Source of the DNA: Candidatus Abawacabacteria bacterium RBG_16_42_10
GTDB lineage: Bacteria; Patescibacteriota; Gracilibacteria; RBG-16-42-10
DNA length: 40,298 bases
Direction of reading: 5' to 3'
Assembly (NCBI GenBank): GCA_001773455.1
Contig: MEWR01000011.1
Span: 26,323-66,620, forward strand
Shown here: piece after piece, positions 3,978 through 39,640 of the stretch
How positions within the stretch are numbered: position 1 is the first letter of the stretch
Layout: every line of letters starts with the position of its first letter
Position numbers and translations under genes: made by a program
The notes under the pieces: model-generated
What the model saw: the letters and a program-made list of their open reading frames with translations, nothing else
Databases searched by the model: none
What the model was told of the DNA's origin: nothing

Positions 3978-4521
3978 GAGATGGTTTGCGCTCATTATAA
4001 GCGCTGTAGCACATAAGAGCGCTGCCAGCAACGACTAGAAATATACCATATTGAGGGCCGGCCAAAGGAGAATTGTCAAAAACAAAGTTGAAGAGTTGCA
4101 GAATACTTGTTATAGCAGCGACGATAGCCAATACAAAGTGTATTTGTGCCATAGGAAATGGTATGGCGGGAATTTTTACATTGAATTTTGGTAACAATAC
4201 CAACAGGAGAACAATAATAGCTGCAAGAAAAGTAACCCAACCTAAACCTCGAAGATTATTGAAACTGATACTGTAATATAAATTGCTGAATGCAAATGCA
4301 GGCAAAAAACTGCTGATAATTACAAGCAGAGCTCCGCCGCCTGTTAACTTTTCAAAAATAGACAATTTTTTGAGTTCACCTTGTACTTTTCCTTGGGCAC
4401 CGCTCCATTGATCTTTGAGCTGCTTGCTTAAATCTGTAGTATTTGCTTTTGCTTGCCCCGCATCCGCGGTGGTAGGTTCAGTAGGTGCTGGAGGGGGATT
4501 TGTGGAATCTTGTTCTGCCAT
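3937..4521 (-). CDS. Hypothetical multi-pass membrane protein with P/T-rich N-terminus
   Basis: ORF with internal ATG at 4521 (MAEQDSTNPPPAPTEP). About 4 hydrophobic segments. No recognisable family. Confidence 0.45.
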   Translation of the reverse strand: MAEQDSTNPPPAPTEPTTADAGQAKANTTDLSKQLKDQWSGAQGKVQGELKKLSIFEKLTGGGALLVIISSFLPAFAFSNLYYSISFNNLRGLGWVTFLAAIIVLLLVLLPKFNVKIPAIPFPMAQIHFVLAIVAAITSILQLFNFVFDNSPLAGPQYGIFLVVAGSALMCYSAYNERKPSHEKATPPSTSTNT

Positions 4522-4890: not shown

Positions 4891-4929
4891 TAATTTTTAA
4901 TTTTACATTTTACACTTTACATTTTACGT
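4891..4929 (+). promoter_or_regulatory. Heptad array, dialect I (TTTTACA / revcomp AAAATGT), abutting ATG 4930
   Basis: taatttttaattttacattttacactttacattttacgt is 7-nt phased. A 26-nt core is the exact reverse complement of 33349-33374. TACATT lies 6 nt before the ATG. Confidence 0.5.
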
Positions 4930-5172
4930 ATGTTTGATCCCAACGCTCAAAGTGAACACGATGATGAAATCGAATTAAACGAAGCTGAAGTTTGGTTGGA
5001 AGAACTTGAAAATATTGCTGGTTCACCGGTCGATGCTGATCCGGAATATATAGAGCTTCGTACTCAGTTGACCGCTTACGTCGATGGTCATCAAACAGAT
5101 ATAGAAAACCTAAAAGAACTGGTGAAGCGTGTGCAGCGCTACCTGAAACAGCAGAATCTTGAGAATGAGTGA
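4930..5172 (+). CDS. Hypothetical small acidic protein
   Basis: 80-aa ORF, very acidic (DDEIELNEAEVWLEELE). No recognisable family. Confidence 0.4.
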   Translation: MFDPNAQSEHDDEIELNEAEVWLEELENIAGSPVDADPEYIELRTQLTAYVDGHQTDIENLKELVKRVQRYLKQQNLENE

Positions 5173-6935: not shown

Positions 6936-6973
6936 CTTAGAAATTAAAAATTTAAAATTAAAAATGTAAAATT
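6936..6973 (-). promoter_or_regulatory. Heptad array, dialect I, abutting the NUDIX start codon
   Basis: Plus strand aaattaaaaatttaaaattaaaaatgtaaaatt. On the coding strand: TTTACA (6970-6965), 18 nt, TAATTT (6946-6941), 5 nt, ATG (6935). Confidence 0.45.
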
Positions 6974-9672: not shown

Positions 9673-12048
9673 TTACTGTTTGATTTTCTTCCACTCTTTC
9701 TCCAGTTTCTTAAGTGCTTTCTCCATATCGATACCTTTACCTAAAACTTTTTTCCAAATATCACCGATTCTTTTTAGTCTTTTGAAAATTGTTTTGATGG
9801 TAAACTTTTTTGGATCCAAGCCGATTTTTACCTCTTGCCAATGCAGTGGAGTTGATACTGGTGCGCCGGGTCTTGGACGCGCTGAATAGGGTGCAACCAT
9901 ATTTTGTCCGCGTCGATTTTGTAAATAATCGAGATACACTTTTCTGTTTCTTTTTGCCGGCATTCTTTCGATGCTTGTTGTCTCAGGTAACTTTGCATGA
10001 ACAATAGTTACTAGTATTTTTGCAAACTCGATAACTTGTTTGGTGGAATACTTTGCTTCCATGGGTACATAAACATGAAGACCGGTCGCTCCCGATGTTT
10101 TGCAAAAACTTTTTATGCCTGCTGAATCTAAAACTTTTTTCACTGTAAGAGCAGTCTCAATCACTTTAGTGAAAGAAATATTGAGTGGATCAAGGTCAAA
10201 CAACAAATAATCTGGTTTATCAAGATGTTGTTGGCGACTATTCCAGGGATGAAATTCGATGCAACCTAAATTAGCCAAATAAAGGAGATCGTATTTATTC
10301 TGACAGAGAGCGAAATTAATTTCTTTGTTTTTGGATGTTGAGAAAATTTTTACTGTTTCCAAACCTTCGGGGATAATATTGATGTTCTTTTGGAAAAAGT
10401 TTTCGCCGGTAATGCCGTCGGGAAAACGATGTAAGGCTTGAGGACGATCTTTTAAGTATGGCAGTATAAATGGTGCGATCTTGTCATAATAGATAATCAA
10501 ATCTTGCTTGGTATATTTTTCTTGTGGCCAAAAGATTTTGTTGAGATGGGTAAATTGTGAATTTGTTTTATAATTTTTATTAACTGGAAATATATTTTTC
10601 TCTTTCGTTACTTCCATTGGATTTTTGTCTTCGCGAATACCGAGGAATACTGGATGACGCATCATGCCTTCCTGAGTCCACTCGGTAAAACGAATTTCAC
10701 AAACCACCTTGGGTTTCAGCCATTGTACCGGAGCATTTGTTACCGGTTCTCTCTTGAATGGACACTTCTTAGTGATCAGCGGTTTTAGCAGGGATTTAAT
10801 TTCTTTTAGTAAACTTTCGTTAAATCCTCCACCAGTGTGACCGATATAAATTAGCTTTCCTTTCTCATAGACTCCCAAAACCAAAGCACCGAATTCTTTC
10901 CTGCTCCCACGTGGTGCGGTAATGCCACATATTACTGCTTCTTGTTGCTGAAGATTTTTTATTTTGAGCCATGATTTGCTTCTTTCACCGATTTGATAGG
11001 TGCTGGCTCCATCTTTGGCCATAATACCTTCAATACCAGCCTCAACTGCGGTAGCGAAGAGTTCTTTGCCATGCTCAATAATGTGATCACTGTATTTGAC
11101 GCGAGCAAGTATTGGTAGAACATGTTTAAGAATTTTTTTTCTTTCCAGCAATGGCAAATTGCGCAAATCTTGTTTTTTGTATTCTAAAATATCGAAGACA
11201 TAATAAACCAGATTACCTTTGCCGGTTTTTTTGTAATTTTGAATTCGTTGAAAATCTGCACGACCATTTTCATCTAAAACCACTATTTCACCGTCCAGAA
11301 TCATTTCTTCGGATATCTTGGCTAATTCTTTGGCGATAGGTGGAAATTGTTGATTGAGTGATAAACCGTGCCGAGAAAGAAGTTCGACTTTAGTGTTTCT
11401 TATTTTACCAATAGCCCTATAGCCATCCCATTTAATTTCGAAAATCCAATCTGCCTGATCAAAGGGTTTATCAGCTAGATGCGCTAGCATCGGTTCAATT
11501 GGCGCAGAAAAGTTACTAAAAATCTTTACTTTGGGTTTTGTTGATGGTTTGGCACTGAAAATGTCAGACTTTTTTATCAGTAGCCAATTTTTAGATTTTT
11601 TCATTTGGATCAAAGCAAATTCACCATGCAGTTTTTTGCCATACAAAATAAAAGTTATATGGCCTTTCTTGAGCCCAACCAGAAGACTCTTTTCACTTTC
11701 CTTTCTATCATTGGTATTAATCGCTTCGTACGTGCCGTGATCCCATATCTTTACTTTACCCGCCCCATAATTTCCTTTGGGAATAGTACCTTTGAAAGTG
11801 GCATATGCTAGAGGATGATCTTCAACATGTACTGCTAATCTTTTTTCCTCCGGATTTGTTGAGGGTCCTTTCGGTACTGCCCAACTTTTCAATACTCCAT
11901 CCACCTCGAGACGAAGATCATAATGCAAATGCGAAGCATGATGTTCATGCACTACAAATTTCAAAGTTCCTTTGCCTGGGATTTTTTTGCCCTGAGGTTC
12001 TGGAGTGCGAAGAAATGTTCTTTTCTTTTGATAAATCTTGAGGGACAC
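9673..12048 (-). CDS. ligD: Multifunctional NHEJ ligase LigD (phosphoesterase + ATP-dependent ligase + primase-polymerase)
   Basis: N-terminal PE motif FVVHEHHASHLHYDLRLE..VLKSWAVPKGPS. Ligase adenylation motif EIKWDGYR. C-terminal AEP motifs FDLDP and KTSGATGLHVYVP. GTG start. Confidence 0.9.
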   Translation of the reverse strand: MSLKIYQKKRTFLRTPEPQGKKIPGKGTLKFVVHEHHASHLHYDLRLEVDGVLKSWAVPKGPSTNPEEKRLAVHVEDHPLAYATFKGTIPKGNYGAGKVKIWDHGTYEAINTNDRKESEKSLLVGLKKGHITFILYGKKLHGEFALIQMKKSKNWLLIKKSDIFSAKPSTKPKVKIFSNFSAPIEPMLAHLADKPFDQADWIFEIKWDGYRAIGKIRNTKVELLSRHGLSLNQQFPPIAKELAKISEEMILDGEIVVLDENGRADFQRIQNYKKTGKGNLVYYVFDILEYKKQDLRNLPLLERKKILKHVLPILARVKYSDHIIEHGKELFATAVEAGIEGIMAKDGASTYQIGERSKSWLKIKNLQQQEAVICGITAPRGSRKEFGALVLGVYEKGKLIYIGHTGGGFNESLLKEIKSLLKPLITKKCPFKREPVTNAPVQWLKPKVVCEIRFTEWTQEGMMRHPVFLGIREDKNPMEVTKEKNIFPVNKNYKTNSQFTHLNKIFWPQEKYTKQDLIIYYDKIAPFILPYLKDRPQALHRFPDGITGENFFQKNINIIPEGLETVKIFSTSKNKEINFALCQNKYDLLYLANLGCIEFHPWNSRQQHLDKPDYLLFDLDPLNISFTKVIETALTVKKVLDSAGIKSFCKTSGATGLHVYVPMEAKYSTKQVIEFAKILVTIVHAKLPETTSIERMPAKRNRKVYLDYLQNRRGQNMVAPYSARPRPGAPVSTPLHWQEVKIGLDPKKFTIKTIFKRLKRIGDIWKKVLGKGIDMEKALKKLEKEWKKIKQ

Positions 12049-12057
12049 AAAGTCGAT

Positions 12058-12849
12058 TTAATGTATGTGTGAGGTCTTCCTGTGGGCTTTGTGCAAACTC
12101 TTTCGTAACGCCGCTAACAAATCAGGAACCTGAGTTGCAGAAACTTCTTTCATTTTTGGTATATGCATTTTTTTACCTTTCCTTTTGTTCTCAATTACTT
12201 TCTCAAGTTTTTCAGTATGGGTATCATGATATTTTTCAGGATCGAAATGTACTGAAAGTTTGTCGATGAGCTCTATCGCCATTGCCAATTCACGACCTGG
12301 TACTGGTGTTTTCTTGGGCAAACTCTCTTTGGGCGGATGTCGTAATTCTCCCGAGAGTCTTAATGTGTTCAAAACCAAAATACCTTTTTCGGCCTTAAGG
12401 GCGACGAGGTGTTCTTTTTTTTGGAAAACAAATTTACCTAAGCCGATCTTTCCTGTCTTTTTTAATGCTTCAAGTAAAAAATTGTATATACGATCAGATT
12501 TCTGATCTGGGCCAATGTAATATGGCTTCATATACAGCATTGGATCGATTTCTTTTTCATCCACGAAATCTTCTATGGCAATAACTTCAGATCTCTTTAA
12601 GGCTGCATGACGGAAATCCTCATCACTGAGTATCACAAAGTCACCCTTGTCATATTCATAGCCACGTACGATTTCCGGCCAGGAAACTTCTTCACCGGTT
12701 GCTTTGCATACTTTTACATAGCCAATAGGACAAAGATCTTTTTTACGGACATATTGAAACTTTGGTGTATTTTCTCTGGTTGCCGAATACAGTGTAACCG
12801 GAATATGGATAAGACCGAAACTGATTGCACCCGACCAAATGGAACTCAT
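12058..12849 (-). CDS. ku: Ku DNA end-binding protein
   Basis: MSSIWSGAISFGLIHIPVTLYSATRE is the canonical bacterial Ku N-terminus. 263 aa. Ends 9 nt upstream of ligD. Confidence 0.9.
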   Translation of the reverse strand: MSSIWSGAISFGLIHIPVTLYSATRENTPKFQYVRKKDLCPIGYVKVCKATGEEVSWPEIVRGYEYDKGDFVILSDEDFRHAALKRSEVIAIEDFVDEKEIDPMLYMKPYYIGPDQKSDRIYNFLLEALKKTGKIGLGKFVFQKKEHLVALKAEKGILVLNTLRLSGELRHPPKESLPKKTPVPGRELAMAIELIDKLSVHFDPEKYHDTHTEKLEKVIENKRKGKKMHIPKMKEVSATQVPDLLAALRKSLHKAHRKTSHIH

Positions 12850-13596: not shown

Positions 13597-14931
13597 ATGT
13601 CCAAAAATAAATTTTCTGGGTATTTACTGGGTGGTGTGATACTCGTTTGTGCCTTTTTGGTTGGTATGATCTATTTGGATGCGATACAAGGTTTGGGTTT
13701 GGCAACAGTAATTAATAATGATATCGGTTCTCTTGTTGATGCGCAGGGAGTTTCTGATCGTGCCATTCCCGGTCAGTACATTGTGGTACTCAAAGAAGAT
13801 GCTGGGACTATGGTATATGCACAGAGTGTTGCTGATACCTATAAAGTATCTCCTTCATTTACATACACCAAAGCAATCAATGGTTTTGCTGCGAGCCTTA
13901 CACAAACAAACCTCAGTAAAGTAAAGAGTGATCCTCGAGTTGCCTATATTGCTCAAGATCGAACGGTCAAAGTGTCTAGCCATGCAAGGAAAACAGTGAA
14001 TGTGTCTACTGTTTCAAAGCAAACACTTCCTACTGGGGTTGATCGGATTAATGCGGAGAACAAAACAAACAAAGGCAAAGATGTAAACATTGCTATTCTC
14101 GACACTGGTATTGATTTCAATCATCCCGATCTCAAAGCTAATATTGCCGGTGGTAAAAATTGTTCTACCGGCACAACATACAATGACGGTCACGGTCATG
14201 GCACTCATGTTGCTGGTACTGTGGCTGCTCTCGACAACACTATCGGTGTGGTGGGTGTGGCTCCCGAAACGAAATTGTGGGCTGTGCGTGTGCTGAATAA
14301 TAACGGCACAGGTAGTTGGTCATCGCTGATATGTGGTATAGATTTTGTCACATCAAAAGCGCCTAAAAATGGAGGGAAAATTACTCTCGCAAATATGAGC
14401 CTCGGTGGCTCTGGTACGAGCGACAATAATTGTGGGAAAACGAATAATGATCCACTTCATCAGGCAATTTGTCGTTCTCGGGATGCCGGTGTGACATATG
14501 TAGTGTCTGCAGGCAACGAAGGTGTGGATGTGAGTCGATCTGTGCCGGCGGCATATGATGATGCTGTCATAACTGTTTCTGCTCTTGCAGATTCTGACGG
14601 TAAGTCAGGAGGGACAGGTCCTAAAACAAGTTATGCCCCCGATGACACATTTCCATCGTTCAGTAACTACGGAAAGACAGTTGATCTTGCTGCTCCGGGA
14701 GTAAGAATAAATTCCACATGGAAAGGAGGAGGGTTGCGTGCCTTAAATGGTACAAGCATGTCTACTGCTCATGTTACCGGTGTTGCCGCGCTGTATGTCA
14801 AAAACAATCCTGGCAGTACATGGAAACAGGTCCGCGATGCTTTGATTTCTCTTGGTGAAAAACTCAATGATGGTCATAAGGATCCATCAGGAAAACATCC
14901 AGAGCCGGTAGTAAGAGCGGATACTCTGTAA
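13597..14931 (+). CDS. Subtilisin-like serine protease (S8) with I9 propeptide, paralog 1
   Basis: N-terminal TM/signal segment. I9-like IPGQYIVVLKED...INGFAASL. Catalytic Asp AILDTGID, His HGHGTHVAGT, Ser GTSMSTAHVTG. Confidence 0.9.
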   Translation: MSKNKFSGYLLGGVILVCAFLVGMIYLDAIQGLGLATVINNDIGSLVDAQGVSDRAIPGQYIVVLKEDAGTMVYAQSVADTYKVSPSFTYTKAINGFAASLTQTNLSKVKSDPRVAYIAQDRTVKVSSHARKTVNVSTVSKQTLPTGVDRINAENKTNKGKDVNIAILDTGIDFNHPDLKANIAGGKNCSTGTTYNDGHGHGTHVAGTVAALDNTIGVVGVAPETKLWAVRVLNNNGTGSWSSLICGIDFVTSKAPKNGGKITLANMSLGGSGTSDNNCGKTNNDPLHQAICRSRDAGVTYVVSAGNEGVDVSRSVPAAYDDAVITVSALADSDGKSGGTGPKTSYAPDDTFPSFSNYGKTVDLAAPGVRINSTWKGGGLRALNGTSMSTAHVTGVAALYVKNNPGSTWKQVRDALISLGEKLNDGHKDPSGKHPEPVVRADTL

Positions 14932-14933
14932 AA

Positions 14934-15071
14934 AACTCAGGTGATGAAAGGCGATAAGAAAACTCAGGTGATGAAAGGTGATAAAAGGTGAAAAGGGTAA
15001 ATCCTCCCACCTGCATAGCTCACTATTCACCTGCATTTATGCGAACTCAGGTGATAAAGGGCGATAGATGT
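14934..15071. repeat. CAGGTG/CACCTG repeat module A (3 direct units + 2 inverted half-sites)
   Basis: AACTCAGGTGATGAAAGG(C/T)GATA units start at 14934, 14961 and 15044. CACCTGCAT occurs at 15008-15016 and 15028-15036. Confidence 0.7.
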
Positions 15072-15079
15072 GGTACAAT
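15071..15079 (+). promoter_or_regulatory. Candidate extended -10 (TGgTACAAT) for subtilase paralog 2
   Basis: tggtacaat lies 24 nt before ATG 15103. Repeat unit 3 (15044-15068) covers the -35 region. Confidence 0.4.
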
Positions 15080-15102
15080 TTAACGATGCTAACAAAAATA
15101 AA

Positions 15103-16524
15103 ATGCACAAACACAAAATAAAACTTTACAGTGTTTCTGGTATATTTGCTCTCTTTGGTGGACTTTCCGGTGCCTACTATGGTGATGATTTGGGACGAGG
15201 ACTGTATGCCATGTTGGGTGCAGAAAACTCACAGAATTCTGATATGAGTGTGGTCAGCCAAGCGGCATCAGAAAAAGATCGTGTCCCCGGACAATATATT
15301 GTTGTTTTCAAAGATGATGCCGGGCAAAATGCCTCTGCTCAAAGCTTTGTTGAATCATATAGTGTGGAAACTACTCACACATATAGCAAAGTTTTCAAAG
15401 GTATGGCTGCACGTATGTCTACTGCTTCCTTGGCCAAAGTTCTGAGCGATCCACGAGTAGCATATGTTGTCGAAGACAGAATAGTAAAAATGAGCAGTAC
15501 AACTAAAAAGCCTAGTACCACCAAATCTACTCCCACCCTCATCTCTAAACCTACCGCTACTCCTAAATCCACTTCTTCTACTGCAAGGCCCGCCCCACAA
15601 GCAAAAAATAAGCAAACACTTCCCACAGGTATCGATCGTATCAATGCCGAAAAGAAAATAAATACCGGAGCAGATATCAATGTTGCTGTTGTGGATACAG
15701 GCATCGATTTGAATCATCCCGATCTCAAAGCTAATATTGCCGGTGGTAAAAATTGTTCTACCGGCACAACATACAATGACGGTCACGGTCATGGCACTCA
15801 TGTTGCGGGAACCATTGCTGCACTGGATAACCTATCTGGTGTTGTCGGTGTCGCACCCAATGCAAAACTCTGGGCTGTGCGTGTGCTGGATAATAATGGT
15901 TCAGGCACGTGGTCTTCAGTGATTTGTGGTATTGATTTCATTACTTCCAATGCTCCCGCAAATGGAGGGAAAATTACTCTCGCAAATATGAGCCTCGGTG
16001 GCTCTGGTACGAGTGATAACAATTGCGGAAATACAAATAATGACCCATTTCACAAGGCTATTTGTCGCTCTCGTGATGCCGGTGTGACATATATCGTTGC
16101 AGCCGGTAATTCTGGGACGGATGCAAGTCTTTCAGTGCCTGCTTCGTATGATGATGCTGTAATCACTGTTTCCGCTTTGGCAGATAGTGACGGAAAGGCT
16201 GGAGGAACCGGAAAAGAGGTAAGTGGTTATAAGGATGATACCTTCCCAATATTCAGTAATTTTGGCAAAGTCGTAGATATTGCAGCTCCAGGAGTAAATA
16301 TTCTTTCGACCACAAAGGGTGGCGGTACGAAGTCTCTCACAGGTACAAGCATGGCAACTCCCCATGTGACAGGTGCTGCTGCACTATATTTAAAAACTAA
16401 TCCGGGCAGTTCCTGGACTCAGATTAAAGATGCATTGATCTCTTTAGCTGAAAAACTTGGCGCTGGCCATACCGATCCATCGGGAAAACATCCAGAGCCA
16501 GTTGTAAGAGCAGACACACTGTAG
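15103..16524 (+). CDS. Subtilisin-like serine protease (S8) with I9 propeptide and S/T/P-rich linker, paralog 2
   Basis: Same D/H/S motifs (VVDTGID, HGHGTHVAGT, GTSMATPHVTG). Linker SSTTKKPSTTKSTPTLISKPTATPKSTSST. Start taken at ATG 15103 (MHKHKIKLYSVSGIFALFGG); the track uses GTG 15070. Confidence 0.9.
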   Translation: MHKHKIKLYSVSGIFALFGGLSGAYYGDDLGRGLYAMLGAENSQNSDMSVVSQAASEKDRVPGQYIVVFKDDAGQNASAQSFVESYSVETTHTYSKVFKGMAARMSTASLAKVLSDPRVAYVVEDRIVKMSSTTKKPSTTKSTPTLISKPTATPKSTSSTARPAPQAKNKQTLPTGIDRINAEKKINTGADINVAVVDTGIDLNHPDLKANIAGGKNCSTGTTYNDGHGHGTHVAGTIAALDNLSGVVGVAPNAKLWAVRVLDNNGSGTWSSVICGIDFITSNAPANGGKITLANMSLGGSGTSDNNCGNTNNDPFHKAICRSRDAGVTYIVAAGNSGTDASLSVPASYDDAVITVSALADSDGKAGGTGKEVSGYKDDTFPIFSNFGKVVDIAAPGVNILSTTKGGGTKSLTGTSMATPHVTGAAALYLKTNPGSSWTQIKDALISLAEKLGAGHTDPSGKHPEPVVRADTL

Positions 16525-16537
16525 ATTAAGACAAATA

Positions 16538-16641
16538 TTCACCTGCGTTCATAAAAACTCAGGTGATAAAAGGTGCTAAAACAGGTGAGGAGGCTCAGCC
16601 TTACCACCTGCGAAGCTCACCTTTCACCTGCATTTATTTGA
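16538..16641. repeat. CAGGTG/CACCTG repeat module B; includes the likely terminator shared with convergent rpmG
   Basis: Unit AACTCAGGTGATAAAAGGTG at 16556. CACCTGCG at 16540 and 16605. CACCTGCAT at 16625. Hairpin CAGGTGAGGAGGCTCAGCCTTACCACCTG at 16582-16610. The ~37-nt 3' part is homologous to 15004-15040. Confidence 0.65.
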
Positions 16642-16883: not shown

Positions 16884-16972
16884 ATAACAATTGAAAATTA
16901 ACAATTATCAATTAACAATGGGAATCAGAACTCATAAAATAAGGAGCATTAATTATTGTTAATTTTATATGA
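16884..16972. repeat. Heptad array, dialect IV (ATTAACA/ATTGAAA), plus inverted partner
   Basis: aataacaattgaaaattaacaattatcaattaacaat (16884-16918). 10-bp inverted partner attgttaatt near 16955-16965. Shares a 21-nt exact match with 22518-22538. Confidence 0.6.
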
Positions 16973-23525: not shown

Positions 23526-24692
23526 TTACCGTATTTGAATGGCAATGAACTTCAGATGATTAGATTCGGGATAATTGACTAGTATAGGAAAGTCCTTATC
23601 AGCATGAGCTTTGTGGACGATTGTGTAGTGTTTCCTTAGAGACTTGAACATGCCATTTAGCATCGATAGAAAATCCTGCCCTGACCATTGGGTGTAGTTC
23701 GTGGAACAGACGAGAACACCATGAGGATTAAGGAGAGGAATACTTTCTTTGATTAATTCTTCATAGTTTTTATTCACTGAAAATGTGCCGGTTTTCTTCT
23801 TGGCAAAGGTCGGTGGATCGAGAATGATCATGTCATAACGAATATTTTTGCGCTGGCAAAATTGAAAATGATCAAAAGTATCATTGGTAATGATGTGATT
23901 TTTCTTTAGATCTAAGCTGTTTAACACAAAATTTTCTTTGGCCCAATCATTATACGTCTTGGAAATATCGACACTGGTGGTCTCTCTTGCTCCACCCATG
24001 GCACAAGCAATGCTTAAGCTAGCTGTATAACTGAATGTGTTACAGATGCTTTTCCCTTTGCACATGGTCTTTAACCAAGCACGATTTGCTCTCTGATCAA
24101 GAAATAGTCCCGTCATGAGACCGCTATTTAACCTGACGATAAACCGGCCTCCGTTCTCGTTAATAATTAAATTTTCTGGTGCAGGTTCGCCATAAATCAC
24201 CGTTGTTTCCGGTTTTTTGGGTGTAGGAGTTCGGTCCTTGGCATACATGCCATTCAAATGAGGCAAAGAGATTCTTAACGCAGCAATGAGATCATTCTGA
24301 TAATGCTCTATACCGTGATTGAAGTTGGTAATGACGGCATAATCATTGAAGATTTCAATGTGGATTCCGGGAACGCCATCAGCCTCACTGTGAATTAATC
24401 GATAAGCTTCTGGGAATTTAGGAAATATTTTTTTTCTTTTCTCCAAAGCCTGTTGCAGTTTTTTTTTCAGAAACTCACCGCTCAAAGGTTTATCAATCAC
24501 ACATACATCGTTTTTTTGTGATCTTCCAGAATACCCAAATGCTAATGATTTCCCGTTATGAATTATTTCGAAACATGCCCCTTCTTCTGGCAGAACCTCC
24601 AGGAAGTCTTGCTTTGTTAAATATGGTATTCCCTTATTGAGTTGTAATATCCCTGTTTTGCGAATCTCGCAGGTTGACAAAAATGTAAGCAT
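23526..24692 (-). CDS. Class I SAM-dependent rRNA methyltransferase, RlmI/RlmK-like (PUA-like N-domain + MTase)
   Basis: Motif IV DMIILDPPTFAKKK, with a preceding Rossmann segment. Size (388 aa) and architecture match RlmI-type m5C methyltransferases. Confidence 0.75.
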   Translation of the reverse strand: MLTFLSTCEIRKTGILQLNKGIPYLTKQDFLEVLPEEGACFEIIHNGKSLAFGYSGRSQKNDVCVIDKPLSGEFLKKKLQQALEKRKKIFPKFPEAYRLIHSEADGVPGIHIEIFNDYAVITNFNHGIEHYQNDLIAALRISLPHLNGMYAKDRTPTPKKPETTVIYGEPAPENLIINENGGRFIVRLNSGLMTGLFLDQRANRAWLKTMCKGKSICNTFSYTASLSIACAMGGARETTSVDISKTYNDWAKENFVLNSLDLKKNHIITNDTFDHFQFCQRKNIRYDMIILDPPTFAKKKTGTFSVNKNYEELIKESIPLLNPHGVLVCSTNYTQWSGQDFLSMLNGMFKSLRKHYTIVHKAHADKDFPILVNYPESNHLKFIAIQIR

Positions 24693-24701
24693 CTCTGAAA
24701 A

Positions 24702-24741
24702 GAGTTCTAACTTAGAACTTTGAACTTAGAATTTTGAACTT
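24702..24741. repeat. Heptad array, dialect II (AACTTAG/GAACTTA)
   Basis: gagttctaacttagaactttgaacttagaattttgaactta fills the spacer between the TIM-barrel stop and the methyltransferase start. Confidence 0.6.
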
Positions 24742-25534
24742 ATTTTTCTTCCTTCTCGTCATCATCTTCGCTGCTGCCACCGCCTACATCTACTTCTTTC
24801 TTGAGGAAATACTCTTCATAAAATTCTTTTGCCTTACGGAGATTGTCCATGACTTTAGTTTTGTCTCCTGCTCCCATAGCTTCGAGGCTGAATTTGATAC
24901 AAATTGGTTTGTTGAAATTGTCTTTTCGTAGATGTGTCAGGAAACTTTCCAGTGGTATTTCTCCTTCATCCAAAGGCTGGTTGTACATGCCATTGTGGAA
25001 GTTTGAAATGTATACGAACTCTAAGCGCTTTCGAATGATTTTGTAGACACGAAGAAGAGGAAGTTTCTGTGAGGCCAAATGTGCAGTATCTAAACAAATA
25101 TAATCAAAGCGACGTAAATCTTCGATATTGCGGAGAGAGTATTGAGGCAAGAAAATACCGGTAGTTGCTGGTGGATTTTCAATACAAATCTTCACCTTGG
25201 TCTTTTTCTGAATTTTAGGAATTTCATTCTTGAACCATTGTGCGTAGCGAATATTCGTAAAAAGCGGAGGGCGAGCATTGAGCAAGGGGACGCCGACAGT
25301 TTCGGCTATTTCCAAGGCAGATTGGAAACGTTTTGGTGACGCATCTGAGGTCAAAGAGAGGCTGACAATGGGAATTTTGAAAAACTCCTGTAAACGAAGT
25401 AAATAATCAGGATCTCGAGTATCAAAAATATCATTCAAGATGATATCGACCCCTTCATAGCCAGCATCTTTTGTGAATTCAAATATTCGATTGAGTCCGT
25501 ATTTGTAGAGACAGCCGGAAGATAAACACAGCAT
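24740..25534 (-). CDS. Sugar phosphate isomerase/epimerase (xylose-isomerase-like TIM barrel) with acidic tail
   Basis: 264 aa. Pattern GYEGVDI....LDTAHL...ISNFH resembles the AP_endonuc_2 / TIM-barrel family. Recognised by eye. Confidence 0.6.
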   Translation of the reverse strand: MLCLSSGCLYKYGLNRIFEFTKDAGYEGVDIILNDIFDTRDPDYLLRLQEFFKIPIVSLSLTSDASPKRFQSALEIAETVGVPLLNARPPLFTNIRYAQWFKNEIPKIQKKTKVKICIENPPATTGIFLPQYSLRNIEDLRRFDYICLDTAHLASQKLPLLRVYKIIRKRLEFVYISNFHNGMYNQPLDEGEIPLESFLTHLRKDNFNKPICIKFSLEAMGAGDKTKVMDNLRKAKEFYEEYFLKKEVDVGGGSSEDDDEKEEK

Positions 25535-25632: not shown

Positions 25633-25857
25633 ATGAATACCAAAAATAAAAATAAACATAAAATGCTTCGGGACAGGAATTATTATTTGCGAAAAACTTC
25701 TTTGTGGATGCTGATTATGATCATGATCATTTGGTTAGGCGTCTACCAGGTTGTGATCACGGGTGCTTTTTCCAGATCTTTCTGGGCAAGTATTATCGGT
25801 GTACAACATTCATCTCTCATGAAACATGAACCGATTGAGAAACTGACACTGAAGTAA
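25633..25857 (+). CDS. Hypothetical small membrane protein (start uncertain, possibly ATG 25663)
   Basis: 74-aa ORF with one TM segment (LWMLIMIMIIWLGVYQVVITGAF). An extended -10, TGcTATACT, lies at 25621-25629. Confidence 0.3.
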   Translation: MNTKNKNKHKMLRDRNYYLRKTSLWMLIMIMIIWLGVYQVVITGAFSRSFWASIIGVQHSSLMKHEPIEKLTLK

Positions 25858-25859
25858 CT

Positions 25860-25961
25860 GGTTCTAAATTCAAAGTTCTAAATTCTAAGTTAGAAAACCA
25901 ACAACTTTGAACTTAGAACACTTCGATGCACTCAGTGCAAGCCTAGAACTTAGAACTTGAG
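25860..25961. repeat. Heptad array, dialect II, in both orientations around a TTCTAAGTTAGAA centre, interrupted by a GC island
   Basis: gttctaaattcaaagttctaaattctaag / ttagaa...ctttgaacttagaac [GC island 25919-25943] tagaacttagaacttgag. Confidence 0.6.
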
Positions 25962-29575: not shown

Positions 29576-29941
29576 ATGACAAAATTTGCTTTCGACATAA
29601 GTGATGCACAGTTTGGAAAGACCCCCGCGAAGCATATAGTCATGCGTGGTGAATTGGACGAAAGCAATGTCGATCATCATGCAGAAACCATGTATGAGGC
29701 AATTCGCTTGGTCAAACCCGGAACCTATTTTATCTTTGAAGGTAGTGGACTCAGCTATATTAATAGCAAAGCTATAGGTTATCTCACTGATTGGTACAAT
29801 AAACTCAATGAAAAAGGTGGGAAAATCATTATCGTCGGCCTAAAACCGACCATATTCGACATTCTCGATGTCGTCGGCATTACACAGATCATTCCCGTCT
29901 ATAAGAATCTTGAAGAAGCAGAGAAAGAACTATTGAAGTAG
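29576..29941 (+). CDS. STAS-domain anti-sigma-factor antagonist (RsbV/SpoIIAA-like)
   Basis: 121 aa. GELDESNVD....GSGLSYINSKAIGYL, with Ser in the phosphorylation position. Begins 2 nt after the kinase-like gene. Confidence 0.8.
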   Translation: MTKFAFDISDAQFGKTPAKHIVMRGELDESNVDHHAETMYEAIRLVKPGTYFIFEGSGLSYINSKAIGYLTDWYNKLNEKGGKIIIVGLKPTIFDILDVVGITQIIPVYKNLEEAEKELLK

Positions 29942-30011
29942 TGCAGAGTTCAGAGTGCTGAGTTGTGAGTTAAAAACTCTGAATTCTGAACTTATAACTC
30001 TGAACTTGAGT
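29941..30011. repeat. Heptad array, dialect III, as an imperfect inverted repeat between convergent genes (probable bidirectional terminator)
   Basis: gtgcagagttcagagtgctgagttgtgagtt / aactctgaattctgaacttataactctgaac. About 21 of 31 positions are complementary. Confidence 0.55.
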
Positions 30012-30698
30012 TTATTCTTTTATCTCCATCCGTATTCCTGGGCCCATGGTGCTTGTTAGAGTTGTGCTTAGGATATAATTACCTTTGATTCCGGTAGGAC
30101 GAGCGCCTCTTACCGCATTGATGATGACAGCGACATTTTCAGCGATTTTTTCTTTGCCAAAAGAGAGTTTGCCGCCGATTGCATGAAGATTGCCTTGAGG
30201 ATCGTTGCGAAACTCAATACGACCTTTTTTGATTTCGCCTATTGTGCCGGCAATGTCTGTCGTTACCGTGCCTGACTTGGGATTTGGCATGAGACCTTTG
30301 GTACCGAGGATTTTACCCAGTTTGGCAATTTTGGGCATCATTTCTGGTGTAGCTACAGCCACATCGAAACCTGTCCAATTTTCTTTCACTACTTTTTCCA
30401 TAAGATCTGTGTTTCCAGCGAAGTCAGCTCCAGCTTTCTTGGCTGCAGCTACTTGGTCATCATTGACGAAAGCTGCGATAATTTTGCTCTTACCGCTACC
30501 GTGCGGAAGAGATACTGTGCTTCGGATCTGTTGATCGGGATACTTAGGGTCGATATTGAGATGAAAATGTACTTCTACCGTACTGTCAAACTTGGTGGTA
30601 CCTGTGTCAACGAGAAGGCCACAAGCTTCCTCGAGAGGATACTTTTTTTGACGGTCGAACTTGGCACTAGCGGCTTTATACTTTTTGGAACGTTTCAT
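30012..30698 (-). CDS. rplA: 50S ribosomal protein L1
   Basis: MKRSKKYKAA....FDSTVEVHFHLNIDPK....IRSTVSLPHGSGK is a canonical L1 sequence. Confidence 0.95.
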   Translation of the reverse strand: MKRSKKYKAASAKFDRQKKYPLEEACGLLVDTGTTKFDSTVEVHFHLNIDPKYPDQQIRSTVSLPHGSGKSKIIAAFVNDDQVAAAKKAGADFAGNTDLMEKVVKENWTGFDVAVATPEMMPKIAKLGKILGTKGLMPNPKSGTVTTDIAGTIGEIKKGRIEFRNDPQGNLHAIGGKLSFGKEKIAENVAVIINAVRGARPTGIKGNYILSTTLTSTMGPGIRMEIKE

Positions 30699-30709
30699 AA
30701 AATAGGGGA

Positions 30710-31135
30710 TTAATCTTCCACCGTTATTCCCATACTACGTGCAGTGCCAGCGATCATTCGAATAGCCTGATCGACGGAGGTGGTGTTGAAGTCAACCATT
30801 TTGACTTCAGCGATTTTACGTAATTGGGCTTTGGTGATTTTGCCGACTTTCGTCTTATTAGGCTCACCAGAACCTTTGGGGAGATTGATTTCTTTGAGAA
30901 TCAGGTCAGACGCGGGAGGAGTTTTGAGTATGAAATCAAAGCTACGATCTTGATAAATGGTGATAATTGCAGGAATGAGCACATCACCCATTTCTTTGGT
31001 CTTGTCATTAAACTGCTTACAAAACTCTTGAATATTGATGCCATGAGGACCAAGAGCCGTACCGATAGGAGGTGCGGGATTGGCTTTTCCAGCCTTTGCT
31101 TGCAGCTTAACTTTTACTAATACTTTCTTTGCCAT
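30710..31135 (-). CDS. rplK: 50S ribosomal protein L11
   Basis: [43 protein letters not shown] is a canonical L11 sequence. Confidence 0.95.
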
Positions 31136-31177
31136 AACTGAAATTTAAAATGTAAAATTTAAAATGTAAAATTGAAA
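31136..31177 (-). promoter_or_regulatory. Heptad array, dialect I, abutting the rplK start: TTTACA-17-TAAATT-6-ATG
   Basis: Coding strand: TTTACA (31170-31165), 17 nt, TAAATT (31147-31142), 6 nt, ATG (31135). The 29-nt stretch 31140-31168 is identical to 39544-39572. Confidence 0.5.
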
Positions 31178-31720
31178 TTAAACTTTTTTAATCTGGGTGA
31201 ATTCCAATTCTACCGGAGTTTCACGGTTGAAGATAGAGACAAGTACTTTGATCTTTCCTTTGTTTTCATCGATTTCACTGATGGTACCTTGATAACCGGC
31301 AAATGGGCCTTCAGTAATAGCAACGATTTCACCCAAAGTAAAGTCTGCTTTGAATTTGGGCTCTTTGACACCCATGCGCTTACGTATGCGCTTGATCTCA
31401 TCGTCAGTGACAGGGACCGGTATGGTGCCGGAACCGATAAATCCGGTCACATTGGGGGTGTTTCGCACGACATACCATGATTCATCGGTCACAATCATAT
31501 TTACGATGACATATCCGGGGAACATGCGCTTTTCAACCAATTTTTGTTCGCCTTTTTTGACTTCAATTTGGGTTTCTTTCGGAACAATGACATCAAATAT
31601 AAAATCCTGCATATTCATCGTCTCTGTGCGTTGGCGGAGGGCCTCAGCTACAGCGTCTTCATATCCGGAATATGTGTGAAGGACATACCATTTGCGTCCT
31701 TGGCTCGTTTGTTTAGACAT
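31178..31720 (-). CDS. nusG: Transcription antitermination factor NusG
   Basis: KWYVLHTYSGYEDAV (NGN domain) and C-terminal KOW GEIVAITEGPFAGYQGTISEID. Confidence 0.95.
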   Translation of the reverse strand: MSKQTSQGRKWYVLHTYSGYEDAVAEALRQRTETMNMQDFIFDVIVPKETQIEVKKGEQKLVEKRMFPGYVIVNMIVTDESWYVVRNTPNVTGFIGSGTIPVPVTDDEIKRIRKRMGVKEPKFKADFTLGEIVAITEGPFAGYQGTISEIDENKGKIKVLVSIFNRETPVELEFTQIKKV

Positions 31721-31729
31721 ACTGCTTAT

Positions 31730-31930
31730 TTAAACTCCTCCAGCTAAAAAAGTGGAGAGGGACTGGTAACCATAACGGAAAAATGCATCCAAAAGTGTAA
31801 TGACAACTGTCGTTGCCAATGTTATTCCCAACACTATGAGAGTGCTGTCGACAGCCTGTTTTCGTGTGGGCCAAGCGACTTTTCGTAACTCCTCGATAGA
31901 ATTTTTGACGTAATTCGTTAGGCGGCTCAT
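31730..31930 (-). CDS. secE: Preprotein translocase subunit SecE
   Basis: 66 aa. ELRKVAWPTRKQ followed by one TM segment. Conserved position upstream of nusG. Confidence 0.8.
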   Translation of the reverse strand: MSRLTNYVKNSIEELRKVAWPTRKQAVDSTLIVLGITLATTVVITLLDAFFRYGYQSLSTFLAGGV

Positions 31931-32052
31931 AAAGATTTTTAAAAAGCCCTTCCGGGCTCTTAAGCGTCCGTATATTAAATGGTTATAGATAATTACGCAA
32001 GGTCTTTTTTCTTATCTTGCAACTCTGACCCCATTTGTGTTTATTTCTATTG

Positions 32053-32106: not shown

Positions 32107-32147
32107 TGAATTCAACTTTTAACTTAGAACTTAGAATTTAGAACTTT
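32107..32147. repeat. Heptad array, dialect II, abutting ATG 32151
   Basis: tgaattcaacttttaacttagaacttagaatttagaacttt. The 26-nt stretch 32121-32146 is identical to 33417-33442. Confidence 0.65.
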
Positions 32148-32150
32148 CTT

Positions 32151-32852
32151 ATGCCCGCTTTTGATATTCGTGCCAAAGTCGTCTCCAATGTCCGCGTTAC
32201 TGACAATGTATGTGTTCTTACTTTTGCTATGATCGAGCCGCAAGAATTGCAATTTAAAGCTGGTCAGTATCTTTTTGTTCACGCTTCTGAGCGAGTACTT
32301 CGTCCTTTTTCTATTTCCTCATCGCCTGATAACATCACAACTTTTGAATTCTGTATTGAAGTCATCCCCGACGGAGTTGCTTCCAATTACCTATGGAATT
32401 TGAAAGAACATGATGAAGTCCTGCTCAAGGGAGTCTTTGGCAGTTTTGTCTATCATAAAGATCCGGATATTGAAGAAATCTTCATGATTGCTACCGGTAC
32501 CGGGATCGCCCCGATAAAGTCCATGTTGTTGTATGAATTGAATCACGGTGAAAAGCGCCCCACACATCTGCTTTTTGGTGAAAGCATGGCAAAAGATTTT
32601 TATTATCTCGATATTTTTGCGGAATTAATAAAGAAATATCCCAATTTGACGTGTGATCTATGCGCTTCCCGCGACCAAAAAGAAGGCTATATAAACGGTC
32701 GTGTTCAGACCGCTCTTGAGAAATATTTTCCCATCGGCAAAAAATCCAGTTTTTATATTTGCGGAGGCAGACAAATGATTATGGATGTTTCTGATTTGAT
32801 TATCAAAAATGGTGGTGACGCGAAACACATTTATCACGAAAAATTCTTTTAG
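32151..32852 (+). CDS. FAD/NAD(P)-binding oxidoreductase, ferredoxin-NADP reductase family
   Basis: FAD motif RPFSISS (RxYS type), NAD(P) motif IATGTGIAP, C-terminal FYICGG..M. Confidence 0.75.
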   Translation: MPAFDIRAKVVSNVRVTDNVCVLTFAMIEPQELQFKAGQYLFVHASERVLRPFSISSSPDNITTFEFCIEVIPDGVASNYLWNLKEHDEVLLKGVFGSFVYHKDPDIEEIFMIATGTGIAPIKSMLLYELNHGEKRPTHLLFGESMAKDFYYLDIFAELIKKYPNLTCDLCASRDQKEGYINGRVQTALEKYFPIGKKSSFYICGGRQMIMDVSDLIIKNGGDAKHIYHEKFF

Positions 32853-32915
32853 AGTGCAGAGTTCCCTCCTTCGCAAGAGCTTCGGCGGGCAGGCAGAGTG
32901 CTGAGTGTTGAGTGA
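32851..32915. repeat. Heptad array, dialect III, split by a 30-nt GC island (32864-32893)
   Basis: agtgcagagtt [ccctccttcgcaagagcttcggcgggcagg] cagagtgctgagtgttgagtg. The flanks match the uninterrupted array at 29941-29971. Confidence 0.65.
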
Positions 32916-33337: not shown

Positions 33338-33378
33338 GGCTCAAATTTAAAATGTAAAGTGTAAAATGTAAAATAAAG
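33338..33378 (-). promoter_or_regulatory. Heptad array, dialect I, abutting the hsp20 start: TTTACA-17-TAAATT-6-ATG
   Basis: Coding strand: TTTACA (33372-33367), 17 nt, TAAATT (33349-33344), 6 nt, ATG (33337). Confidence 0.5.
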
Positions 33379-33443
33379 TTTTGAATTGTGAGTTTAGAGT
33401 CTTGAGTTTCATTTTGAACTTAGAACTTAGAATTTAGAACTTG
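33379..33443. repeat. Heptad arrays, dialect III then dialect II
   Basis: ttgaattgtgagtttagagtcttgagtttc, then attttgaacttagaacttagaatttagaactt. Confidence 0.6.
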
Positions 33444-38318: not shown

Positions 38319-39225
38319 TCAGAAGGAAATACAGAAATGGTTTTAAAATGAAATGATACGTGCCCGCATAACTATACACCGATCCGCCAAGCTTTTTTTT
38401 GAAATCAGTAACACCCTGCCAAGGATGATTTTTGCCAGCATTTTCCGGAGCTATCCCCAAGAAGTCATACACATGATATCCCTCACTCTTTGCGGTCGTA
38501 ATGACATGCCATTGCAGCCCATATGTAGCCATGGTCTCCCTGCTTTTGTTTGCTGAAGCACCATAATAATAAGTGACTGTATCGTCAAAAAATACGGCTA
38601 GAATTCCAGCTACAACGGTGTTGTTTTTATATGCCAGAAATAATCGAGCCTGGGATGATAATGTTTTTAAAAGGTTCCGATAATATTCAACATCATGTAT
38701 TCCAAAATGATCCCGCTTTGCCGTCTCTTCGAGCATCTTATAAAAGTCTTGGAGAGCTTTATCAGATCCTTTTTCTTTTTCAGTAAATACTTGGTACGTC
38801 ACGCTGTGCTTTTTGGCAATTTTAATATTATACCGACCTTTTGGTTTCATTTGTTTTAAGAGTTCGTGCTCTGATTGTGTTAGGTCCAGTAATAAAGTTG
38901 TGTCCGGTTGAGTTGCCAATGATGTTTTTTTAAACCCTAATTTTAGTAATTCTTCTTTATAGGGTTCGTTTTTCTCCCAAGGTGGCTCAACTTTGATATA
39001 AAGGCAACGATGTCTGTTGGCAATGTCTAAGAGTTGTGGCCAGAATGGTTTTAGTGACCTGACCGGGCCGCGATTAACGTACAGATAATTATGTCGAAAA
39101 ACAGTTGGGATGGTTGTCCAGTATAACTTTTCTCCATCTTTTTCAATATATCCCGTTTTTCTGCCTGATAATGTTTTTTGGAAGTTCTGCCACTGCTGAC
39201 TTTGGAAGAAATTTTTATTTCCCAT
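38272..39225 (-). CDS. FemAB/FemX-family peptidoglycan interpeptide aminoacyl-tRNA transferase
   Basis: FFQSQQWQNFQKT at the N-terminus and ...YYYGASA....ATYGLQWHVI...YDFLGI, typical of FemX/MurM-like enzymes. Confidence 0.8.
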   Translation of the reverse strand: MGNKNFFQSQQWQNFQKTLSGRKTGYIEKDGEKLYWTTIPTVFRHNYLYVNRGPVRSLKPFWPQLLDIANRHRCLYIKVEPPWEKNEPYKEELLKLGFKKTSLATQPDTTLLLDLTQSEHELLKQMKPKGRYNIKIAKKHSVTYQVFTEKEKGSDKALQDFYKMLEETAKRDHFGIHDVEYYRNLLKTLSSQARLFLAYKNNTVVAGILAVFFDDTVTYYYGASANKSRETMATYGLQWHVITTAKSEGYHVYDFLGIAPENAGKNHPWQGVTDFKKKLGGSVYSYAGTYHFILKPFLYFLLNVFKTLLQAKKTFSR

Positions 39226-39538: not shown

Positions 39539-39575
39539 AGAGTGAAATTTAAAATGTAAAATTTAAAATGTAGTT
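39539..39575 (-). promoter_or_regulatory. Heptad array, dialect I, abutting the hpf start: ACTACA-17-TAAATT-7-ATG
   Basis: Coding strand: ACTACA (39574-39569), 17 nt, TAAATT (39551-39546), 7 nt, ATG (39538). Confidence 0.45.
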
Positions 39576-39640
39576 CAGAGTTATGGGTGAATTTTGAACC
39601 CTTCGATGCACTCAGGGCATGCTTAGAATTTTGGAACTTG
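39576..39640. repeat. Dialect III/II heptads interrupted by a GC island (39599-39622)
   Basis: cagagttatgggtgaattttgaac [ccttcgatgcactcagggcatgc] ttagaattttggaacttgag. Homologous to 25905-25961. Confidence 0.6.

Follow-up and report, generated by a model that had tools for sequence, protein, structure and literature searches.

Five arrays of tandem heptanucleotides, lying directly before the start codons of rplK, hpf, hsp20, a NUDIX gene and the small open reading frame ORF80, were analysed in a 40,298-nt stretch of contig MEWR01000011.1 from Candidatus Abawacabacteria bacterium RBG_16_42_10 (the whole stretch is called the window below). With a probability of roughly 45%, the arrays are fast-evolving, microsatellite-like elements of 5′ untranslated regions (5′UTRs) and intercistronic spacers that would occupy the ribosome-loading position in a bacterium of the candidate phyla radiation (CPR) lacking Shine–Dalgarno (SD) sequences. 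The underlying heptad family TTTTACA/TTTTAAA is termed dialect I, and labels such as L127 denote related contigs or loci. The arrays are located as follows:

4891–4929, + strand: array before ORF80; coding strand TAATTTTTAATTTTACATTTTACACTTTACATTTTACGT, then ATG
6936–6973, − strand: array before NUDIX; coding strand AATTTTACATTTTTAATTTTAAATTTTTAATTTCTAAG, then ATG
31136–31177, − strand: array before rplK; coding strand TTTCAATTTTACATTTTAAATTTTACATTTTAAATTTCAGTT, then ATG
33338–33378, − strand: array before hsp20; coding strand CTTTATTTTACATTTTACACTTTACATTTTAAATTTGAGCC, then ATG
39539–39575, − strand: array before hpf; coding strand AACTACATTTTAAATTTTACATTTTAAATTTCACTCT, then ATG

The positions, the T-rich strand as coding strand (5/5) and the distance of 5–7 nt between array end and ATG had been proposed in a first-pass annotation and were confirmed by re-reading the coding strands. 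Each array consists of four or five heptads (TTTTACA, TTTTAAA, TTTTTAA or CTTTACA on the coding strand) and closes with TTT, 5–6 variable nucleotides and ATG; the last unit before ORF80 is TTTTACG. All five are intergenic, tandem direct repeats of 7 nt in at least two copies, and Tandem Repeats Finder (TRF) assigned each a period of 7 or 14 with 4–5.6 copies. The rplK array makes up the entire 42-nt nusG–rplK spacer (two copies of TTTTACATTTTAAA plus TTTCAGTT, then ATG), and the NUDIX array (TTTTACA TTTTTAA TTTTAAA TTTTTAA TTTCTAAG) takes up a 36-nt spacer. The hpf array is found at the ATG-proximal end of the murB–hpf spacer, and the hsp20 array immediately precedes its ATG within a spacer of 142 nt, of which it takes up the proximal end. 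Because the 36- and 42-nt spacers are nearly all array, only the three longer spacers show ATG-proximal placement independently, and the agreement in orientation (5/5) taken alone corresponds to p≈0.06 (two-sided).

The 17-mer TTTTACATTTTAAATTT was matched 15 times with at most three mismatches, every time within the five arrays; dinucleotide shuffles gave 1.0±1.0 matches, and 15 was reached in 0/100 of them. A regular-expression search of both strands for at least two heptads returned the five known sites and no further dialect-I array in the window. Long exact copies link the arrays in pairs. The 29 nt at 31140–31168 (rplK) are identical to 39544–39572 (hpf), as previously annotated, and 27 nt at 4900–4926 (ORF80) are the reverse complement of 33348–33374 (hsp20); for the second pair the identity had been noted correctly, with the length given as 26 nt (4901–4926 and 33349–33374) and thus off by one base. 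Five arrays placed in this way are far more than expected by chance in the window. An assembly artefact was ruled out, as independent assemblies of many ENA and JGI samples have identical arrays. A mobile element resembling a miniature inverted-repeat transposable element was also considered: the flanks of the 27–29-nt copies have no similarity past the arrays (no search for terminal inverted repeats or target-site duplications was made), and ectopic conversion between arrays fits better. A role as terminator U-tract was likewise rejected, as no hairpin lies ahead of the rplK or NUDIX arrays and the one ahead of hpf is weak.

Copy number changes in whole units between strains. Contigs that are 99.2–99.7% identical over the 30–40 kb half have only two heptad-unit indels, −14 nt at rplK (L004) and +7 nt at 32859 (L002, L004 and L005), and apart from these, the strains have only a single-base deletion and a single-base insertion at 38653/38656, which compensate each other; polymorphism in unit steps between near-identical strains was observed directly. 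Over larger distances the arrays come and go, as is seen in the nusG–rplK spacer:

Window: 42 nt, dialect-I array
L004: 28 nt, one 14-mer gone and the −35-like hexamer lost (6/12)
L128: 29 nt, (TTCTAAA)3 plus TTTATTTT
L127: 30 nt, AATTATA-type units
L129/130, L131/132, L183/184, L185/186 and L187: 17–20 nt, repeat-free

The murB–hpf spacer measures 73 nt in the window, 10–26 nt in L127, L129 and L131, and 33 nt in L186; no dialect-I array was present in these four orthologous spacers. Since the spacers of the relatives are short, rplK and hpf would be expressed without a spacer promoter in most of the clade, and the comparison suggests that the rplK and hpf arrays are recent additions. The NUDIX array has an ortholog in L182 (88% protein identity) with another heptad count and the same register, TTTACA-17-TAAATT-6-ATG: the two differ in heptad units at two places, a TTTTCAA unit being found only in L182 and a further 7 nt beside the ATG only in the window lineage. 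Before ORF80, a 21-nt block that includes the irregular CTTTACA has no counterpart in L182 and matches a section of the hsp20 array exactly, which suggests copying between loci.

The hexamer T[AC]AATT lies 6 nt before the ATG (7 nt in hpf) in rplK, hsp20, hpf and ORF80 of the window, in L182 NUDIX, in L128 rplK and in a single-copy motif before nusA that is described below. At any one site the phase is kept because the steps are 7 nt. Agreement over independent genes has a chance probability of about 0.002 to 0.01, calculated from the observed spacings, and requires selection or copying that includes the junction.

These data bear on the explanation that the arrays are neutral repeat DNA, for which slippage and ectopic copying would be very active, arrays would stay wherever they are harmless, and orientation and register would stem from a shared origin and from 7-nt steps. 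The polymorphic copy number, the sharp differences in array density between close relatives, the 27–29-nt exact copies including CTTTACA between unlinked loci and the 21-nt insertion before ORF80 relative to L182 are all as expected for such DNA, and so is the distribution of dialect I in other organisms. A search of genome contigs with (TTTTAMA)3TTT gave at least 120 loci in many phyla, including Bacteroidota, Ignavibacteria, Cloacimonadota, Firmicutes and several Patescibacteria (the source genome is not among the matches listed), and an alternating 24-mer gave 40 loci in metagenome contigs, mostly from unrelated organisms. With both scans pooled, 34 arrays were oriented toward a start codon as in the window and 23 in the opposite way, out of 144 among the matches listed, which is a weak bias. 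The fixed orientation described in the first-pass annotation holds in the window (5/5) and the orientation bias is weak across phyla, so the pattern is lineage-specific and not universal. Neutrality nevertheless accounts poorly for the finding that all five arrays of the window, and no others, are ATG-proximal in a single orientation and register, for the nusA motif that keeps this register without an array, and for the low chance of the phase agreement across genes. It is considered unlikely.

The start regions were examined for translation signals. SD sequences are absent from all five genes, as had been claimed, and almost absent from the lineage. A survey of 112 genes, drawn from the window and from three further, related species, revealed no peak of SD-like tetramers; the G content was down to 6–12% from −14 to −1, and T reached 56% at −1. 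The array RNAs are free of G and have practically no structure (−3.7 to −5.3 kcal/mol for 75 nt, the same as shuffles). Nothing specific to this lineage was found in the literature on leaderless mRNAs or anti-SD sequences of CPR bacteria and, to our knowledge, almost nothing is known about the initiation of transcription and translation in CPR/Patescibacteria.

The transcription of the genes concerned appears to be provided from further upstream. Among the promoter-like sites in the part of the window that contains the rplK and hsp20 arrays are the following three:

31972–32000, − strand: TTGCGT-17-TAATAT, sigma70-type, upstream of secE; leader of about 45 nt; kept in L127, L128, L129 and L184
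33449–33477, − strand: TTTACA-17-TAGGAT, TG-bearing and promoter-like, about 105 nt upstream of hsp20; hexamers and spacing the same in L127
32053–32080, + strand: TTGTCA-16-TATAAT, 11/12, the best match in 10.5 kb; leader of about 65 nt to the ATG at 32151

The first of these is the likely source of a secE–nusG–rplK–rplA transcript, and the second, if active, would place the hsp20 array in a 5′UTR. The genes of this transcript, and ORF80, are located as follows:

31730–31930: secE, upstream of nusG
31178–31720: nusG, upstream of rplK
30710–31135, − strand: rplK (ribosomal protein L11; Pfam match and gene call), directly downstream of the rplK array
30012–30698: rplA, downstream of rplK
4930–5172: ORF80, coding for a conserved 80-aa acidic protein

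Just to the left of the window, in L175, nusA and an efflux gene diverge from a spacer with TTGCCA-17-TATAAT (nusA) and TTGACA-17-GATAAT. The nusA leader is about 110 nt long, and the promoter and the first 60 nt or so are conserved in L181 and L182 (three species in all). In the window lineage (L175) this leader contains the single, unrepeated TTTTAAATTTCATAT-ATG in the same register as the arrays. Judging from these sites, the real promoters of the lineage appear to be canonical and leadered, with leaders of 20–110 nt, and to stand at operon starts. The genes rplK, hpf, NUDIX and ORF80 follow co-directional genes, and hsp20 and nusA have conserved canonical promoters 105–110 nt upstream. As an upstream gene string or a conserved promoter supplies transcription in every case, none of the six sites with the proximal motif needs a promoter of its own; all six need a translation start signal, which favours the 5′UTR reading.

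The mechanism proposed for the 5′UTR reading draws on the observed repeat structure, orientation, register, polymorphism, turnover and SD absence, on the unstructured RNA and on the conservation of promoters upstream. Young heptanucleotide microsatellites would grow and shrink by 7 or 14 nt, would now and then be copied between loci, and would have accumulated on the last 30–40 nt before certain start codons. Presumably transcribed within 5′UTRs or intercistronic spacers from ordinary upstream sigma70 promoters, they would provide a G-free, unstructured, U/A-rich stretch of RNA in which the last unit, UUUUAAAUUUC(A)-N3–5-AUG, would occupy the position of the ribosome-binding site. In SD-independent initiation, ribosomes would probably land or stand by on the proximal UUUUAAAUUUC(A). 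Selection would bear on this proximal unit and on the register, and the upstream copies would largely be an echo of slippage.

Several points weigh against this proposal. A register as strict as 6–7 nt fits a −10-to-start distance or base pairing better than it fits loose A/U-rich enhancers, and rplK, hsp20 and L182 NUDIX match the sigma70-like geometry exactly, with TTTACA at −35 to −30 and TAAATT at −12 to −7 (numbered from the first base of the ATG). As a general start-proximal signal, T[AT]AATT was not seen outside the arrays. The window holds no rRNA to which UAAAUUU or UAAAUUUCA could be matched; candidate partners would be the 16S rRNA tail and S1. The translational benefit must moreover be modest, because the array is dispensable in relatives.

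The first-pass annotation had instead interpreted the arrays as leaderless promoters. The hexamers and spacings that it quoted were found as given:

rplK and hsp20: TTTACA-17-TAAATT-6-ATG
hpf: ACTACA-17-TAAATT-7-ATG
NUDIX (window): TTTACA-18-TAATTT-5-ATG
ORF80: TACATT-6-ATG

A TANNNT-like hexamer ends 6–8 nt before the ATG in rplK, hsp20, hpf and ORF80, with NUDIX (5 nt) outside this range. The −35-like TTTACA is present in rplK, hsp20 and NUDIX, weak in hpf (ACTACA) and ORF80, and absent from L004 rplK and the single-copy nusA motif. Sigma70-like geometry would place +1 on the A of the ATG. Under this interpretation the housekeeping sigma factor would use TTTACA, a 17-nt spacing and TAAATT or TACATT inside operons, transcription would start on the A of the ATG, and rplK, hpf, hsp20, NUDIX and ORF80 would each obtain transcripts of their own that are tuned or switched by the copy number. 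Three arrays (rplK, hsp20 and L182 NUDIX) have this geometry exactly and two (hpf and window NUDIX) deviate by at most 1 nt, every start codon is ATG, and the register T[AC]AATT-6/7-ATG is repeated in six genes of the window lineage, L182 NUDIX and L128 rplK. The 36- and 42-nt spacers just fit −35 through +1, canonical sigma70 hexamers are employed by the lineage, and T-rich heptads belong to a real promoter, that of Vibrio cholerae ctxAB (bioRxiv 10.1101/2021.05.14.444153).

Orientation, register, near-identical copies and sigma70-like geometry thus stood in this genome, but promoter function is not favoured, for which six lines of evidence are available. First, the hexamer pair is inherent in the heptad: any TTTTAMA run holds TTTAMA-17-TAMATT, because 3×7+2=23=6+17. 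Scores of at least 9/12 are attained by 21/148 (14%) of AT-rich heptad classes. In a promoter scan the arrays scored only 9/12 on the coding strand and 9–10/12 on the antisense strand (TTTAAA-17-TAAAAT, 9/12; TTGCCA-18-TAAAAT, 10/12), and 34 promoter-like sites were counted in 10.5 kb, as compared with 22.4±4.9 in shuffles. Promoter-likeness is intrinsic to the heptad and strand-symmetric, and scans against promoter consensus sequences yield too many hits in AT-rich periodic DNA, whichever strand is read. The heptad TTGATAA scores 10/12, the most promoter-like value possible, yet its array in L128 sits where a promoter makes no sense; AACTTAG scores 5/12, yet its array ends 4–5 nt before an ATG. 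That an array so little like a promoter is also placed near an ATG favours the 5′UTR reading. Furthermore, L004 rplK and the single-copy nusA motif lack a −35 hexamer, the spacers of orthologous genes in relatives are too short, and hsp20, nusA and secE–nusG–rplK are already served by conserved upstream promoters. The sites are not at the starts of transcription units and follow co-directional genes or conserved promoters. At the leaderless distance the lineage as a whole gave no −10 peak, TANNNT occurring 6–7 nt before the start in 11/112 genes, four of which are the arrays. Finally, reverse-oriented (A-rich) dialect-I heptads precede start codons in L043 (the same metagenome-assembled genome (MAG) as L128), L168 and L182 nusA. 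Leaderless promoters are accordingly judged improbable; they keep some weight because the geometry is exact.

In an extended form of the same idea, which is regarded as quite doubtful, the heptad would be a promoter module that is complete in itself and spreads by itself, with slippage and copying installing, tuning and erasing leaderless operon-internal promoters. At least 4.3 TTTTAMA units carry their own −35 and −10 hexamers, because 3×7+2=23, and in the observed register such a run would fire on the A of the ATG. If true, it would amount to a phase-variable, copy-number-coded layer of transcription control in an SD-less CPR bacterium.

The closest precedent is provided by the TAACTGA heptamers of Beggiatoaceae (MacGregor 2015, PMC4679880), which are tandem, intergenic and mostly forward, occur in 2–6 copies, end a few nucleotides from SD-less starts and are also found in ribosomal-protein operons; a translational role has been proposed as a candidate function (PMC4679880). 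The dialect-I arrays likewise have one orientation and end within several nucleotides of the start codon (5/5 in the window, with exceptions in related genomes), and no SD sequence lies in the interval between repeat and start. They differ in being TTTTACA/TTTTAAA and G-free, in their small-genome CPR host, in the coexistence of several heptad dialects as opposed to a single dominant heptamer, in a register of 5–7 nt as opposed to mostly 1 nt, and in that the dialect-I array also mimics a sigma70 promoter.

In cyanobacteria, heptanucleotide short tandemly repeated repetitive sequences were reportedly described by Mazel et al. in 1990. For Nostoc PCC 7120, (TTTTGAA)3 occurs near start codons, and deletion of heptamers alters reporter output (bioRxiv 10.1101/2022.06.06.494920). 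The cyanobacterial heptamers are, like those of the window, abundant, intergenic and divided into several families, some of them lying at most 100 nt from start codons or −10 boxes; phylum and sequences are different, and a fixed ATG register is not known to have been reported for them.

Binding has been proposed for the heptamers of Beggiatoaceae (PMC4679880) and Nostoc (bioRxiv 10.1101/2022.06.06.494920). A dedicated repeat-binding regulator might act on the DNA (like ToxR or H-NS) or on the RNA (Csp-, CsrA- or S1-like) and join rplK–rplA, hpf, hsp20, NUDIX, ORF80 and perhaps nusA into a growth/stress regulon. A hibernation factor, a small heat-shock protein, L11/L1 and NusA are loosely related to growth and stress, and in the sister genome GCA_021733565.1 hpf and NUDIX have another common start-proximal motif (AACTCTTAACTT..CT.TT-ATG), which hints at co-variation. 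This co-variation concerns two genes only, however, no candidate binding protein was found, and presence, absence and copy number turn over too fast for an essential regulon, so that such a regulator is deemed very unlikely.

Other known systems are less similar. The ctx repeats of V. cholerae lie upstream of and overlapping the −35 element and serve as ToxR, ToxT and H-NS binding sites, and the transcript carries an ordinary leader with an SD sequence. The arrays of the window, in contrast, reach to 5–7 nt from the ATG with neither leader nor SD sequence, unlike the ctxAB-type arrangement. The ctxAB TTTTGAT repeats are T-rich, vary in number by strain and affect promoter activity (bioRxiv 10.1101/2021.05.14.444153). 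The leaderless promoters of Actinobacteria and Deinococcus (−10 TANNNT about 6–7 nt from the start) share a similar hexamer before the ATG and the lack of SD sequences; there, they are genome-wide and at operon starts, whereas here no peak is seen and the sites are operon-internal or behind other promoters. Contingency loci made of simple sequence repeats (Haemophilus and Neisseria, in promoters or 5′UTRs) resemble the arrays in unit-step polymorphism within a population and in location in an expression-control region, and differ in unit length (1–5 nt versus 7 nt here) and in the genes affected (surface antigens versus housekeeping and stress genes here). New features of the present arrays are the CPR host, the many coexisting heptad dialects, the strict register and a heptad that encodes a sigma70-like hexamer pair. 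A fixed-register element at the ribosome-loading position gives a concrete handle on SD-independent initiation, be it as RNA landing pad or as −10 box, and the heptads are a plausible source of rapid expression change because they evolve on the timescale of strains.

Dialect I is one member of a general heptad phenomenon. TRF reported about 17 arrays of period 7 over the 40 kb; of 31 intergenic spacers with a length of at least 15 nt, about a dozen contain such arrays, and at least six unrelated heptads were distinguished (TTTTACA, AACTTAG, AATTAAC, TAACAAT, ATTCTGA and AGTGCAG/AACTCTG). Dialect I is the sole family in which every copy abuts a start codon in one orientation. Array density varies from about 17 per 40 kb in the window and 9 per 9.5 kb in L128 to 1–3 per 20 kb in L127, L129 and L131; heptad arrays are common over the clade and differ in sequence and place. 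The array of L128 with TTGATAA units lies at a convergent junction (4146–4245), and TTGTAAT/TTCCTAA units are found just upstream of the secE −35 hexamer in L185 and L187. TTTTACA/TTTTAAA microsatellites are widespread in unrelated phyla (Saprospiraceae, other Bacteroidota, Ignavibacteria and Cloacimonadota) among the matches listed (L007–L126 and L133–L172); these distant arrays often adjoin other heptads (CATCTCA, CTTCCGA, CCCTAAT), and several end a few nucleotides before an ATG.

Within the window, the AACTTAG/AACTTTG/AATTTAG family occurs in both orientations (24709–24742, 25862–25958, 32121–32146 and 33416–33442), among other places before the gene starting at 24692 and upstream of the hsp20 dialect-I array. 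The leader of about 65 nt downstream of the 11/12 promoter includes its array at 32121–32146, which stops 4–5 nt short of the ATG at 32151. Two inverted heptad pairs form strong hairpins and look like terminators made of heptads: CAGAGTT.../AACTCTG... at the convergent junction 29936–30015 (−25.4 kcal/mol on the + strand, z=−3.5; −19.0 kcal/mol on the − strand) and TTCTAAA.../TTTGAAC TTAGAAC at 25855–25925, after a small open reading frame (−17.2 kcal/mol, z=−4.5).

Heptad repeats also mislead gene callers. The rpmG gene (L33; 16642–16911, − strand) is called as 89 aa from a TTG, through a TAACAAT/ATTGTTA array (16885–16919). The call is inflated because the open reading frame runs through the heptad repeat, and the true start is likely the ATG of MAKKTNRLW, about 30 codons downstream. 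MurB is a further case, with 292 aa in the window lineage versus 283–293 aa in relatives, and the 3′ end of murB (39612–39640) appears heptad-like (AACTCAA GTTCCAA AATTCTA). The gene calls of two related MAGs merge murB and hpf into a single 402-aa open reading frame (L185, 242–1450; L187, 1550–2758), and the two are separate in L186.

Between the secE promoter and the ATG at 31930, a terminator-like hairpin with a T-run (AGAGCCCGGAAGGGCTTTTTAAAAATCTTT-ATG) is found at 31935–31965 on the − strand. It is present in all relatives in which the region was examined (L127, L128, L129, L131, L185 and L187) and may be an attenuator or an RNA-stabilising element. In one strain (L002, 8657–9991) an insertion sequence with an rve integrase lies between a FAD/NAD-binding gene and secE and is called as a SecE fusion.

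The host is an uncultured member of the Patescibacteria (CPR), Peribacteria/Abawacabacteria-like and with the standard genetic code. The closest named proteins to its NusG are 91–92% identical and belong to MAGs of Candidatus Gracilibacteria and Abawacabacteria, and a 98% relative is encoded in a MAG labelled Candidatus Peribacteria. The 80-aa product of ORF80 is conserved to about 85% in two further species, where synonymous changes are seen, which marks ORF80 as a real gene. The only known RNA families in the window are two tRNAs, and no L1/L11 leader was detected. The remaining content includes murB–hpf–femAB–ftsW–murG, an H+-pyrophosphatase, a SpoIIE/anti-sigma/STAS trio, Ku and LigD, and two toxin–antitoxin pairs. 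Ku and the full-length LigD (ligase, primase-polymerase and phosphoesterase; 9673–12849) form a complete non-homologous end-joining pair in a small CPR genome, and the toxin–antitoxin pairs, of RelB/YafQ and ParE type, are close to this region. A Transposase_mut gene ends the contigs of the window lineage just past murB. Two tandem subtilase (Peptidase_S8) paralogues at 13597–16641 share about 75% DNA identity, and each is followed by a spacer with a different repeat family, in which a 27-nt unit AAAACTCAGGTGATGAAAGGCGATAAG occurs twice with AGGTGATAAA units, together with the partial reverse complement TTCACCTGCATTTAT.

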